Source: Octopus vulgaris
Taxonomy: Eukaryota
NCBI GenBank assembly: GCA_951406725.2
Contig: OX597831.1
Location: forward strand, 64,480,001-64,544,000
Length of the DNA: 64,000 nt
Direction of reading: 5' to 3'
In this document: positions 27,478-32,911 of the stretch, piece after piece
Position numbering within the stretch: the stretch's first letter is position 1
How the letters are laid out: every line of letters starts with the position of its first letter
Notes under the pieces: model-generated
What the model was told of the DNA's origin: nothing
What the model saw: the letters and a program-made list of their open reading frames with translations, nothing else
Database searches by the model: none
Translations under genes and position numbers: made by a program

Positions 27478-27665
27478 CCGGAGTAAACACATAAATGTGA
27501 AACAAGGTGGAAAAAAGAGTACTCAAATACCAGTGGTAGAGTAATATGTTTTACTTAAAGCAGCAGAAAATTCAACAAAACCTATTACTCTGAGTTTCGC
27601 TTTGCCGTTCATCGGACAGTTTTTGCTAGCGAAATTTTGTTGAATTTTCTGCTGCTTTAAATAAA

Positions 27666-27668
<3 letters not shown>
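27477..27668 (-). mobile_element. Penelope-like remnant, second copy, with hammerhead-like motif at about 27575-27625
   Basis: Minus strand CUGU-CCGAUGA-..-GAAA-CUCAGAG-UA-AUAG; ~31-bp inverted arms 27550-27580 / 27635-27665. Confidence 0.6.
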
Positions 27669-27710
<42 letters not shown>

Positions 27711-27765
27711 AATAATTGTGTACAGTGCTCAGGTGCACTACAACTCATCTAAAGTGTATATATAA

Positions 27766-30591
27766 TCAGGTGAAGTTTCGGCGGATTTCGGAAAGCATGA
27801 GGGCCTTAAAAGATGCAGTGTCATGGCAGTCAACAACTGACGCAGGCAGTTTATTCCATGCTTCAGCAACTCTGAGCGTGAAAAAATGTTTCCGAAAGTC
27901 ATGGGAGCTGTATTGTTTTCTGACTTTGTAGGCATGTCCACGTGTGTTAGACACATGGAGATCAAAAAGGTGTTCAGTGTTGTTGTTGGTGAGGTGGTTG
28001 ATAACTTTGTGGGTGTTTACCAAGTCCGTCGCCAAACGCCGGAGCTTCAGAGAATCCATGCCCAGGGAAACAAGGCGCTCAGAATATGGTAGGTGTCTGA
28101 TGGAGGGTATGCGTTTGGTTGCACGTCTCTGGACAGATTCCAGGAGGTCAATGTTCTGTGCAAGATAGGGGTTCCAAACTGATGATGCGAATTCCAAGTG
28201 TGGTCGTACCATAGCTGTATACAGTTTTAAATAGATGGCTGGAGAGCGGCTAACAAAAGACCTGCTGAGTGATGCCAAGACACCCTCGGCCTTCCTGACA
28301 ATCTTAGAGATATGCTTTGACCAACGCAAATCACTGCTGACAGTGATGCCTAGGTCACGCTCGCAAGAGGATTTCTTGATATCAGTGTTGTGGAGGGAGT
28401 ATGTGAACGCAGGGTTTTTTCTCCCAAAATGCATGGTGGTACACTTGTCCACAGCCAGTTTCAGTTGCCAGTCTGTGATCCATTGCTGCATTGTGTCTAG
28501 GTCTGATTGCAGGAAAGAGTTGTAGACATCAGGATCTGTCCTCTTGATTTCAAGGTACAGCTTGATGTCGTCTGCATATTTCAATACTGTGGCATTCTTT
28601 AAATTGGCATCTATGTCGTTAATGTATGCCACAAACAAGAGGGGGCCAAGGACAGATCCCTGTGGTACACCCGATGACATCTCATATGGTGTAGAGTGCT
28701 GTCCTAGAACTGTGACTACCTCCTTTCGGCTGAGGATGAAGGATTTCAACCAGTTAAAAAGGTCATCCCCCACACCCATTGCAGAGAGTTTCACCATAAG
28801 CCTTTTGTGTGGCACAGAGTTGAAAGCCTTAGCAAAGTCAAGGTAGACAACATCCACCCATGAGCCACTGTCAGTAATCTGAGTAATGTCCTCAAGGAAC
28901 TCGACAAGCTGGTCACTGCAGCTGGAGTTAGGGACAAATCCATATTGTGAGGGTCGGATGAGACTGTGAGAGCTCCAGAAGTTCCAGAGTGTTTCTCTGA
29001 CACACGATTCCATCAGTTTTGCAATACAGCTAGTGAGACTGACTGGGCGATAGTTGACAGGTGATGTGCGGTCGCCCTTTTTGAACAGAGGAATGACACT
29101 GGCAGTTTTCCACTGCTCCGGAGTAGCACCATTGTTGAGACAGTACTGGAAGAAAATAGAAAGCTGGTGTAAAAGGAAATGCCTGCCACGTTTGAGAAGC
29201 AGGTATGTAACTCCATCGAGACCAGGGGAGGCATAGTTGCGCTTATTTTGAAGGTGACGTCGCAGCATTGCAGGTGTAAATTCCATAGTTGTTATGGAGT
29301 TTGCTGTTAGTGATGGTGAAGATGGTACATTTTGACTTTCAACAGTGAATATGTTTGCATAGCACTCGGCAATGAGTTCTGCGCATTCCTTGGGGTCGTC
29401 AGTGATCTGGTTTGTGTGAGGGTTGCGAAGAGGGCCCACTGGAGAGTGAGGTCTCTGCTTTGAGTGCACATATTTCCAGAAAACCTTGCTGTCAGGATTG
29501 GCTGCTATGCACTGTTCAAATTCAAGCACTGCTTTTTTTGTCACTTGCTTGAGATGGTTGGAGGATTTATTCCGCTTCTTCCTGTTGGTGTCTGATTTAT
29601 GCAACCTGTATTCCCGTTCAGCAGTCCGACGTTCCCTCCTGGCAAGTCGGACCGCTGAAGTTTCCCAAATTGCCCTTTTGGGGCGGTTCTTCTTTTTTTG
29701 TTTACGTGGCACTGATGCTGCACATGCTGCCCATATTGAGTCCAGGATACTCTGGAGTATAGTATTCACATCTCCAGAGTTGTAGAATTCACGCCAGTTT
29801 GGGTGCTGTAGTTCAGTGTGGTACAGGTTCCAATCTGCTCTCTTCCAATCGAAGGAAGCAGATTGGAGATGGTTCAGGTTTTTGTTGCCCGCAAGAGCCA
29901 GATTGGCGATGATCATAGCATGATCAGAGTCACCTAGAGGTTCCTCCGTAGTGCAATTGATAACCGCTTCAGGAGTTGTGGTGAAGAGCAGGTCCAAGGT
30001 GTTGTCGCCTCTTGTTGGAGAGGTGACTACTTGTGACCAGTTTGAGTCCAGCACAAGCTCAACAAAATCGTTTGCACTCTGTGGCCAATGGAAGGTCTCC
30101 CAATCGATCTCAGGATGATTGAAATCGCCTGCAATAAACACATAAGTGGCTGTTTTCCTGGCAGCAGCTCGGAGGACATTGCAAAGCTGTGTGTCCCGAT
30201 GGTAACTTGGGGGACGATAAACAACGCCAAGCAGGAGTGTTGACATGGTCATACGCACGTCACAGAAAAAAACTTCTTCTTGTGATTCGTTCAAATCGGC
30301 ACAAGGAATTACCAAAAAATTTGAACAAACGTAGACCATCACACCACCACCACGGCGGTTAGTGCGGTCCTTACGGAAGAGGTTGTACCCCGTAATGTTG
30401 AAAACCCCATCACAGAGTAAGGAATGCGCCCATGTTTCCGTGACAGTGATGAAGTCAGGGTCAACACTTCTGACGTAGGCGTTGAACAAATGTATTTTGT
30501 TGCATAAACTGCGAGCATTTAAGGACAACAATTTGTACCCTGCTCGCAGTTTATGATGGTGTGTAGAGGATGGCAGGTTGTTCTGGCTTAG
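27766..30591 (-). CDS. LINE ORF2p: APE endonuclease + reverse transcriptase (no initiating AUG)
   Basis: LNARSL, TETW, GDFN, SDH (APE); YRPVSLT, QYGF, LDFAKAF, GVPQGSVLGPLLF, YADD, DLG (RT); TRGH..FFTLRV..WNKLP CR1-type C-terminus; frame open from 30615. Confidence 0.95.
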   Translation of the reverse strand, partial: LSQNNLPSSTHHHKLRAGYKLLSLNARSLCNKIHLFNAYVRSVDPDFITVTETWAHSLLCDGVFNITGYNLFRKDRTNRRGGGVMVYVCSNFLVIPCADLNESQEEVFFCDVRMTMSTLLLGVVYRPPSYHRDTQLCNVLRAAARKTATYVFIAGDFNHPEIDWETFHWPQSANDFVELVLDSNWSQVVTSPTRGDNTLDLLFTTTPEAVINCTTEEPLGDSDHAMIIANLALAGNKNLNHLQSASFDWKRADWNLYHTELQHPNWREFYNSGDVNTILQSILDSIWAACAASVPRKQKKKNRPKRAIWETSAVRLARRERRTAEREYRLHKSDTNRKKRNKSSNHLKQVTKKAVLEFEQCIAANPDSKVFWKYVHSKQRPHSPVGPLRNPHTNQITDDPKECAELIAECYANIFTVESQNVPSSPSLTANSITTMEFTPAMLRRHLQNKRNYASPGLDGVTYLLLKRGRHFLLHQLSIFFQYCLNNGATPEQWKTASVIPLFKKGDRTSPVNYRPVSLTSCIAKLMESCVRETLWNFWSSHSLIRPSQYGFVPNSSCSDQLVEFLEDITQITDSGSWVDVVYLDFAKAFNSVPHKRLMVKLSAMGVGDDLFNWLKSFILSRKEVVTVLGQHSTPYEMSSGVPQGSVLGPLLFVAYINDIDANLKNATVLKYADDIKLYLEIKRTDPDVYNSFLQSDLDTMQQWITDWQLKLAVDKCTTMHFGRKNPAFTYSLHNTDIKKSSCERDLGITVSSDLRWSKHISKIVRKAEGVLASLSRSFVSRSPAIYLKLYTAMVRPHLEFASSVWNPYLAQNIDLLESVQRRATKRIPSIRHLPYSERLVSLGMDSLKLRRLATDLVNTHKVINHLTNNNTEHLFDLHVSNTRGHAYKVRKQYSSHDFRKHFFTLRVAEAWNKLPASVVDCHDTASFKALMLSEIRRNFT

Positions 30592-31411
30592 TTTCCCTGA
30601 GTTGCTGTAGTTTTTTTAGTTATTGTGGGTAGAGAGCACTCAGACCAGCTGGTATCTCTCTTCCACGTTTCAGCAGTCTTGACAAATCTCCAGATTTGTC
30701 CATCTTCCCGAAGACTGAAGCTTTCCTGTAGAGCTGAGTTCCTATTCAGGGAAGCCACTACACGTAGCTTTGGGCGTACATCGGATGGTAAGCCTGGGCG
30801 TGTTCGGAAGGTGGTCCGATTTTCCCGCCCAGCTTTAACTGAGGCCAGATGGTAAGAGGTTGCCTCAGTGGGGTCCGTAAAAGACAACTTGATGAGCCTA
30901 GGTTTTGGGCCAGGTCGTCCAAGGCGGATAGCACCCATTGGGGGAACGCAGCCTAGGTCTTTGGCTGAGTTGGCAGCAAAAGCCTGAAGATCAGCCATGT
31001 CTTCTGGCACCCCAATGGCAATGACTTCATGGGTGGCAGAATCCGCGGTCTTAAATGCGACAAGAGGTACAGGTACAGGGAGGTTCTTTAGCAGAGCATT
31101 CCGATAAGACCCCTCATTGTGGAGTCCAACCTGAATGGTTGCTTTTATTCCTGCTACTTCCCCTTTTAAAGCACAGATCGATTGTTGCAGTTCTGCAAGA
31201 ACCGCACTGGTCAATTGGTGTTGTTGTTGTTGCTGCTGTTGCTCTGGTTGTGGTTGATTTTGTTGTTGCTGTTGTTGTTGTTGATGTTGTTGTTGCTGCT
31301 GCTCTGGTTGTGGTTGATTTTGTTGTTGCTGCTGCTCTGGTTGTGGTTGATTTTGTTGTTGCTGCTGCTCTGGTTGTGGTTGATTTTGTTGTTGCTGCTG
31401 CTGCTGCTCTA

Positions 31412-31444
<33 letters not shown>

Positions 31445-31838
31445 CTGGTTGTGGTTGATTTTGTTGTTGCTGCTGTTGCTGTTCCGCCTCCTCCACGGGA
31501 GTGGCAGGGGGAGACACAATCGTCGGTTGTGGAGGCACGCAGGCCTGACACTGAAAAGTCCAAGATTTAAGCTGAACCATCTTCCAGAGTCTATCCATCA
31601 TAGCATTATGATGGCTCTTTTTTTGGCCTGGGATCTTCTGAAAGTCCGTGGCACATTGGAGGCAGACAGAGATGAGACATGTCCCACATTCGACCCAGCG
31701 ATTACGGAACGTATTTTCGGGTTCCGTACAGATGTGGCAGGTGTGATTTTCTGGGCAGTGTTCTATTTTAGAGCAGCGACCAGTCTTATCGCACGCCGCT
31801 ATGGATTTCACCATGGCGATTCTGTTGGTTCTGGTCAT
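30588..31838 (-). CDS. LINE ORF1p, 416 aa: Cys-rich PHD-like finger, polyQ/QNQPQPE repeats, coiled coil, RRM-like C-terminal region
   Basis: True ATG at 31838; CHIC..CGTC..CLQC..WTFQCQAC; LAELQQSICALKGEVAGIK heptads; IAIGVPE and IRLGR..PRLIKLSF motifs typical of LINE ORF1p. Confidence 0.88.
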
Positions 31839-32911
31839 CCGTAGAGACAGAAAATGTAAACAACAATACGATAAAAGTAAAATATAAAATATTTGTTTTT
31901 GATTCGTTCTTTTTTGTGTATATTCCTTGTTCTTAAATATTGCGTGTGTATATACACATGTTTCGTTCTTTTTTGTGTATATTCCTTTTTTTCTTAAATA
32001 TTGCGTGTGTATACATAAAAGTATTTGTGCGTATAGACACGGAGAAAGTTTGTAAACAGAAATGAAATTTTGGATTTTTTTGCAGTGTAGTCCGTCACAT
32101 TAAATAGTGTGATTTATTTTCACTCTGCACGTATATACATGTGTGCTACAAGTATCTATGTATGTATGTATGTCACTGCTTTATAAATTTTGGACGTACT
32201 TACTGTCGTTCAACGATTTCTTTTACCCTCAACTACACGTGGTGAATTCTTCCATTGTAGATCTGTGGTGGTCATCGTCGTAATATTTTCTCTTTAGTTT
32301 CCTCGCCAAATTGATTATACCCTAATCAAACCATTTGTTTGTCTACTTGTGAATGTGTCTTTGTTTTAGTAACATTGTATTTTCCTCCTTTTCCTTTTTC
32401 ATTCCCATATTATATGGAACTTCGGTGGACAGCTACTCTAAGACTCTGTATCATGACATGTTATTGGCTTGGAAAATGCAAAGGAAAATGCTTGGCTAAC
32501 CTCATTTGATATTATTTGGGTCCCCAAAATAAATCCAGTTCATTGAATTGTTACTGAGAGGAAGAGGAGGAGAAAGAGGATGCTGCTGCTGCAGATGATG
32601 ATGATGATGATGGAAATGACAATGATGAGCAGAATCCACTGTTGGGATTTAAGTCCACATCATCCACATCCTCCTGGATAAAATAAGAACAAGTCAAATA
32701 CAGGAGTTGTTCTAATCAGTTATATCTTCCATACAAAATTATGTGATCTTGTGCCTGTGTAGTCCTAGATACATTGTGACTGATGATATATATATATGTA
32801 AACATAGATATACATATACATATGTTTGTGTGTATTAGTTTATTTCAGTATTGTCCTATATATTAGTGTTACTGCTCGTTAATTTATCTAATGTATTCTG
32901 TCTTCTTATAG

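Follow-up and report, generated by a model that had tools for sequence, protein, structure and literature searches.

The window analyzed here comprises 64,000 nucleotides (nt) of Octopus vulgaris contig OX597831.1 and carries, on its minus strand, a long interspersed nuclear element (LINE) in which the first open reading frame (ORF1) ends on a heptamer of the slippery type and the second, enzyme-encoding frame (ORF2) overlaps it in the -1 frame. The element belongs to a family here termed family A, and presents the following features (window positions; aa, amino acids; bp, base pairs):

27693..32788, minus strand: whole LINE copy of about 5.1 kb (family A) with TA-rich flanks, probably full length
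30588..31838, minus strand: ORF1, 416 aa from the ATG at 31838, with a second in-frame ATG at 31814
30591..30597, minus strand: slippery heptamer G_GGA_AAC, in ORF1 phase (CAG GGA AAC)
30588..30590, minus strand: ORF1 stop codon UAA, directly 3' of the heptamer
27766..30615, minus strand: ORF2 frame, 949 aa from stop to stop, with an APE endonuclease and a reverse transcriptase (RT) and no AUG before the endonuclease
30532..30590, minus strand: linker of 59 nt, open in the ORF2 frame and leading into the endonuclease
30503..30555, minus strand: 15-bp hairpin (arms 30555-30541 and 30517-30503), specific to family A in this register
27693..27765, minus strand: short 3' untranslated region (UTR) and (ATT)n tail, containing a motif common to a sister family, B

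The ORF2 frame matches the domain families PF03372 (6e-12), PF14529 (1e-13) and PF00078 (5e-37), and a junction search of the 2.8-Gb source genome returned 378 candidates, of which the 40 scored were all 99-100% identical and lay on many contigs. Eight other family-A copies align to the window copy from between 27667 and 27757 to between 32389 and 32788; their 5' ends vary and their 3' end, with its (ATT)n tail, is common, the dispersal and 5' truncation that characterize LINEs. One copy (L376) has the same first base as the window copy but different flanks, and the 5' end rests on these two copies. With an endonuclease followed by an RT and dispersed copies, the element is an APE-type retrotransposon lacking long terminal repeats (non-LTR). 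When 150 of 4031 candidates from a protein search of the genome were scored, many carried the same open frame of 949 aa, indicating that the AUG-less ORF2 is the state of the family and not a defect of the window copy. A quick RT tree groups the window LINE with proteins P0001 and P0002 (support 100), within a set of 34 rows (99) containing one turtle and one amphioxus protein; the tree holds no named CR1 or L2 reference elements, so it does not separate CR1 from L2, and its basal support is weak. Family A is a young, high-copy LINE of the CR1/L2 group.

The sequence bears out the anatomy given in the preliminary description. ORF1 ends in CAG GGA AAC UAA, with an X_XXY_YYZ heptamer (30597-30591) in its zero-frame phase and the stop codon directly 3' of it, and ORF2, in the -1 frame relative to ORF1, is open from 30615 to 27766 with no AUG until 64 codons past TTG 30531. 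This first in-frame ATG, at 30339, lies after the LNARSL and TETW motifs, inside the endonuclease. The ATG nearest to the ORF1 stop in any frame (30518) is out of frame, and the stop context, UAAG in family A and UAAC in family B, contains no AUG overlapping or adjoining the stop as in SART1. A -1 slip at the heptamer is predicted to give a product of 1357 aa. One in-phase heptamer is not rare, given that the ORF1 body holds two more and that, for a Gly-Asn (G-N) ending, synonymous codons yield an in-phase heptamer with p = 0.14; the case therefore rests on conservation and not on the single copy.

A search of the genome with the C-terminal half of ORF1, from which 40 of 150 matches were fetched, recovered older A subfamilies and the sister family B. 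The resulting sample of 128 distinct copies from the source genome was picked by similarity and is not the family as a whole; the junction is present in 124 of them, which split into 81 A copies, 25 B copies and 18 copies of a passenger variant. Families A and B share 72% nt identity around the junction and about 60% aa identity in the C-terminal half of ORF1. GGGAAAC-TAA occurs in 79/81 A copies, GGGAAAY in 24/25 B copies and heptamer plus stop in 23/25. Between the two families the heptamer and stop are identical at 10/10 positions, compared to 34/60 columns upstream and 39/60 downstream, so that the heptamer is conserved beyond its flanks. Its first G is supplied by varying codons (CAG, CTG, TTG) and is preserved. 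The linker measures 59 nt in 80/81 A copies, the 25 B copies all have either 56 or 59 nt, and every length variant found in multiple copies, whether of the ORF1 tail (52, 55, 61, 64 or 73 nt) or of the linker (56 or 59 nt), keeps the phase, as is partly expected given triplet repeats; the only off-phase variants are the passenger family and two copies found singly. Of the 124 junction copies, three have a Met upstream of the endonuclease in the ORF2 frame, two through the flanks of truncated copies and one through a point change in a passenger copy, and no family-level AUG for ORF2 was found among the 124. Queries with two relatives of 52-60% identity returned only A and B among the fetched loci of the source genome. 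Contigs of a B-like family were also observed in a second organism (run X23, organism C), outside the heptamer region.

The passenger variant, a B junction with one extra G that joins the two frames (25 exact copies, against 45 of the normal B junction), was considered as a natural fused subfamily and rejected. All 18 examined copies start 169 nt before the heptamer, are open for only 55 codons upstream of it and share one host element on that side, and 16/18 share the downstream flank within the stretch compared. Judged by these sequences, the variant is a single truncated insertion amplified as a passenger, and is evidence neither way. The conserved heptamer is thus accompanied by neither a family-level in-frame AUG nor a self-propagating fused ORF, either of which would have spoken against the frameshift proposed in the preliminary description. 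Loci L191-L210 (e.g. C2:184824700-184830700) contain a 5'-truncated B LINE nested in a LINE-like element, with an apparent short target duplication, and this nested composite has been amplified to at least 25 loci. We take the host element to be RTE-like by resemblance.

The ORF1 protein consists of a PHD-like finger, a poly-Gln repeat, a coiled coil-RRM-C-terminal domain (CTD) module and a short unfolded tail ending in G-N-stop. The PHD assignment is based on Cys/His spacing and on ESM Atlas neighbours (0.85-0.90) that carry PHD families; a Pfam scan of ORF1 gave no PHD hit. In an AF2 model of the last 203 aa, the mean predicted local distance difference test score is 86.5, and the tail holding G-N scores low (48-66). 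The top nine Foldseek rows for the model of the C-terminal half are human L1 ORF1p (best E 2.5e-5), and a structural alignment (VIA) to the L1 RRM gives Z 9.3 with a root-mean-square deviation of 2.4 over 80 residues, tied with other RRMs. A sequence search of the PDB with the ORF1 profile matched nothing but coiled coils, none better than E 0.078. With an N-terminal PHD and an L1-like coiled coil-RRM-CTD, the modeled ORF1 is of type IIC, which PMC4120745 places in CR1 subgroup 5 and L2 subgroup 6.

The C-terminal Gly-Asn recurs among ORF1 relatives. A HMMER scan identified 59 ORF1 relatives, of which eight without the C-terminal motif were dropped and 51 scored. The three best relatives reaching the C-terminus (45-60% identity) all end in G-N-stop. 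The tail contains G-N in 38/51 relatives, compared to 5.9 in shuffles and 11 for the reverse N-G; G/K-N is found in 43/51 and G/K/E-N in 50/51, against 16.1 expected. The G-N floats, lying 3-36 residues past the last Trp and 0-19 before the end, and in 38/38 cases the residue before it can be encoded with a final G (Ser or Gln in 30 of them). The two best ORF1-profile matches for which DNA is available, L349 and L363, end in G_GGA_AAC-UUC-UAA and G_GAA_AAC-UAA respectively, placing the heptamer one codon before the stop in the former and at the stop in the latter, and both have an AUG-less ORF2 in the -1 frame; GGA is tolerated in the XXX position according to PMC3542737. No long fused ORF1-ORF2 protein is evident among the 59 relatives, the sole long match (P0169) being weak and repetitive, and a metagenome scan with a single protein found nothing.

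To extend the comparison, we assembled 160 loci from contigs of metagenomes and metagenome-assembled genomes (MAGs), taking the best 80 of 429 and the best 80 of 324 candidates (27-45% ORF2 identity); these are evidently LINEs from animal DNA within those assemblies. They were screened together with the window and one B copy, and after removal of 73 loci lacking an endonuclease start and 18 failing the motif rule, 71 usable loci remained in 60 clusters. ORF1 lies in another frame in 33 clusters, at -1 in 24 (one being the window family) and at +1 in nine. Of the 23 foreign -1 families (27-38% ORF2 identity), 16 contain an in-phase X_XXY_YYZ heptamer in the overlap, compared to 2 and 3 in the other phases, and 13 of the 16 heptamers belong to the commonly used set. 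The expected number is 2.5-3.2 from the ORF1 background (p ~1e-10), or 6.85 by an exact synonymous-codon calculation with amino acids fixed (p 9e-7), p-values that overstate independence, since the families fall into about ten groups of a quick tree. The heptamer lies within 3 nt of the ORF1 stop in 5/23 families, as four different heptamers, and in long overlaps it is mostly near the overlap start. None of the nine +1 families has an in-phase heptamer. Among these records, many prokaryotic MAGs (loci L291-L370) carry near-complete CR1-like LINEs, most likely through eukaryotic contamination.

The hairpin downstream of the heptamer exists as previously described, with perfectly complementary 15-bp arms, a 23-nt loop and a 35-nt spacer. 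The surrounding 121 nt fold at -33.4 kcal/mol (z -4.78; 0/200 shuffles as good). Its proposed role as stimulator is not supported by comparison. All 15 pairs form in 61/81 A copies, 13-14 in 19 and seven in one, and at the homologous register only 4-9 of 15 form in all 25 B copies. In a comparison of hairpin-region folds, z is -3.9 for the window, lies between -2.5 and -3.0 for three older A copies and falls off to between -0.7 and -1.6 for three B copies. No compensatory stem changes appear in the alignments inspected. In family B the same 3' arm can pair with a nearer segment at 11-13/15 positions in 22/25 copies (G-U allowed), with minimum-energy folds that are not significant, and the first 75 nt past the heptamer contain no significant fold in A (z +0.3) or B (z -1.6). 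The nearer AACAA/UUGUU and CCUGC/GCAGG pairings, suggested as a pseudoknot or alternative fold, are lost in B on inspection; the folding method predicts no pseudoknots, and long-range pairs were examined to about +260 nt. We therefore reject a hairpin or pseudoknot as conserved stimulator, and on comparative sequence grounds the 15-bp hairpin is probably not the conserved element that would promote slippage, a role for which the adjacent stop codon or some unrecognised element are candidates. Lacking a conserved stem-loop or pseudoknot 5-9 nt downstream, the signal is not classed as a canonical -1 frameshift signal. A C-rich GCCAUCC (window 30574-30566, minus strand), 16 nt past the heptamer, is shared by A and B and is noted as a lead; a protein-bound C-rich frameshift stimulator exists in arteriviruses, and PMC5009743 mentions PCBP.

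From the anatomy and phase of the junction, the missing AUG and the conservation of the heptamer against diverged flanks, we infer that programmed -1 frameshifting at G_GGA_AAC is likely to produce an ORF1-ORF2 fusion of about 1357 aa. Most ribosomes would stop at the UAA and release ORF1p, and a smaller share would shift back by one base on GGA/AAC, continue through the open linker and complete a fusion of ORF1, endonuclease and RT, at a ratio that the slip would set. With the slip site in the unfolded tail, past the complete ORF1 fold, such a fusion would contain an intact ORF1. PMC5009743 counts G_GGA_AAC among the heptamers most prone to shifting. The fusion proposed in the preliminary description thus gains strong comparative support for heptamer and phase, from the sister family, the ORF1 relatives and many CR1-like families, and loses the hairpin.

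Several observations weigh against this interpretation, in addition to the shared ancestry of the distant families. No 3' structure is conserved beyond the heptamer, the hairpin fold fading from A to B; the 75 nt past the heptamer are unremarkable in 16 distant families (z -2.2 to +1.7); and a canonical -1 signal needs a structure 5-9 nt downstream, according to PMC3542737. The strict heptamer is missing in 7/23 distant -1 families, 7/17 families with a heptamer also have an in-frame Met, and several internal A_AAA_AAC hits fall where ORF1 has a conserved K-N. Among 18 held-out loci, seven were called -1, with a strict heptamer in three, or in four once the relaxed form is allowed. Most G-N relatives are known as protein only, where G-N could be a peptide motif. 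Furthermore, in another, unrelated LINE family of this genome (L161), ORF2 lacks an AUG and has no overlap with ORF1, so a missing AUG alone does not imply slippage. Finally, the LINEs studied at the bench, L1 and SART1, reinitiate, according to reviews.

That last point is the basis of an alternative that we regard as unlikely, in which ribosomes would terminate at the UAA and reinitiate in the linker at a near-cognate codon, perhaps aided by the hairpin, to make a separate ORF2p. Reviews describe an AUG-independent mechanism in L1 and a requirement for downstream structure in SART1; A and B share a CUG located seven codons upstream of the endonuclease; in A the hairpin covers this CUG and the first endonuclease codons; and the L161-type family provides an AUG-less, non-overlapping ORF2 in the same genome. 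However, the hairpin is not kept in B, and reinitiation predicts neither a heptamer conserved in one phase, nor the use of differing heptamers at one and the same position by distant families, nor a G-N floating up to 19 residues before the stop. Apart from this argument, several other LINE families of the source genome (L161, L163, L167, L171, L172, L180 and L189) show a splice-donor-like AGTAAGT at or near the ORF1 end followed by a pyrimidine-rich stretch, and the L161/L167-type family starts ORF2 without AUG or overlap.

There is only a slim chance that the frames are joined in the RNA, by an extra base from polymerase slippage on the G/A runs or by splicing, giving a minor fused mRNA that would be read normally. 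The B copy that gained an extra G in the run, with its ORF1 tail in frame with ORF2, shows that the run can gain a base, but it is a single event carried as a passenger. A 1748-nt contig of one sequencing run, whose RNA origin is a guess, crosses the junction with no splice joint, insertion or deletion, although contigs conceal rare variants; those of runs X20, X21 and X23 do not reach the heptamer. Strict dependence on codon phase also suits ribosomes and not polymerases. Hardly credible is the last alternative, that ORF1p has a conserved S/Q-G-N peptide end of which the heptamer would be a mere by-product without a decoding role, ORF2 being made otherwise: most of the distant relatives are indeed known only as protein, and Ser or Gln often stands before G-N, but the motif has no fixed position in its unfolded tail, K-N or E-N can take its place, the codons are slippery in every case visible in DNA, and the enrichment persists with amino acids fixed.

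The remaining distant families suggest that frameshifting at -1 may be one of several routes to a fusion. An in-frame UUU_C occurs within the last eight ORF1 codons in 5/9 of the +1 families, compared to 0/24 in the -1 class and 0.02 expected in each. These five (L246, L261, L279, L280 and L304), at least three of them kin, form a candidate +1 frameshift class, their junctions resembling a +1 site described in PMC5009743; an in-frame Met is also present in 7/9 of the +1 families. Of the 27 clusters without an ORF1 in another frame, 11 have a same-frame ORF1 with a single stop between it and an AUG-less ORF2. This stop reads UGA-C in six, UAG-G in two, and UAG-CAA, UGA-A and UAA-G in one each. 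UAA thus ends ORF1 in 1/11 families of this class vs 18/24 of the -1 class, and the stop contexts match leaky contexts tabulated in PMC3542737, while single-copy nonsense mutations could mimic some of these junctions. Candidate readthrough loci, mostly with a leaky-context stop, are L225, L227, L228, L236, L247, L252, L255, L312, L314, L317, L323, L339 and L356.

Taken together, the three junction classes would all yield an ORF1-ORF2 fusion, hinting at general fusion by recoding. Three routes would then operate, as in LTR elements and viruses: -1 frameshifting (24 families), +1 frameshifting at UUU_C (5/9) and readthrough (11 AUG-less families). That CR1/L2-group LINEs in general make their RT in this way, with a -1 slip here that needs no nearby RNA structure, is a tentative proposal, about which we are somewhat doubtful.

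Other features of the window copy lie away from the junction. The 3' UTR contains a motif (27738-27718, minus strand) that adjoins the (ATT)n tail, is near-identical in A and B and is likely an RT recognition element. Just past the 3' end of the LINE lies a 37-nt inverted repeat (92%; 27544-27580 and 27635-27671) of palindromic appearance or resembling a miniature inverted-repeat transposable element. The leader of about 950 nt (32788-31839, minus strand) is rich in upstream AUGs and has a donor-like AGTAAGT near 32203, with a pyrimidine tract ahead of ORF1; its part at about 32680-32550 resembles coding sequence for an acidic stretch. Captured host sequence is one possible explanation, an intron another.

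In the literature searched, which does not extend to subscription papers or Repbase reports, no slippery site is described for CR1/L2 elements, and earlier proposals may exist. The survey PMC4120745 contains no occurrence of "frameshift", "overlap" or "fusion", nor does PMC13343379, and no frameshift mention was found in PMC3894237 by a term search and in its first part. Among these elements PMC5009743, over the text covered, discusses HeT-A, TART and L1 only; passages of PMC2881922, PMC5006619, PMC1925062, PMC11203168 and PMC11835228 also belong to this literature. As far as this literature goes, the conserved, putatively viral-type -1 slippery site would be new for a CR1/L2-group LINE.

A paper of 2013 (PMC3708506) called ORF2 translation in bicistronic LINEs "not clear". 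If the frameshift is real, a large group of animal LINEs would make a Gag-Pol-like fusion at a set ratio, tying the RNA-packaging protein to the enzyme, explaining AUG-less ORF2 annotations and giving a testable answer to how such LINEs make RT; a -1 signal working without proximal structure would also interest the recoding field.

Among known systems, the junction resembles viral and retroviral gag-pol -1 signals, as described in PMC3542737 and PMC5009743, in having a heptamer in the upstream frame near its stop and a start-less polymerase ORF at -1. It differs in that its host is a non-LTR element, that no conserved structure lies 5-9 nt downstream and that the frameshift is predicted from sequence. 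Within non-LTR elements, a figure legend in a review (PMC5911963) states that ORF2 of the Dictyostelium elements TRE5-A and TRE3-A depends on a -1 frameshift. These are likewise APE-type elements with two ORFs, the likeness in frameshifting resting on that legend; they are amoebozoan, target tRNA genes and have an unrelated ORF1 and a zinc-finger ORF2. A -1 shift in LINEs has therefore been stated before. Human L1 and silkworm SART1 share with the window LINE a bicistronic RNA, a dependence of ORF2 on ORF1 translation and an L1-like ORF1 fold, but make a separate ORF2p by unconventional initiation or reinitiation, in SART1 at an overlapping stop-start with an AUG; the window LINE, in contrast, has no AUG, overlapping ORFs and a conserved heptamer. 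With CR1/L2 LINEs bearing a type IIC ORF1 it has in common the ORF1 architecture, an APE-RT ORF2 and a short 3' UTR with a simple-repeat tail.

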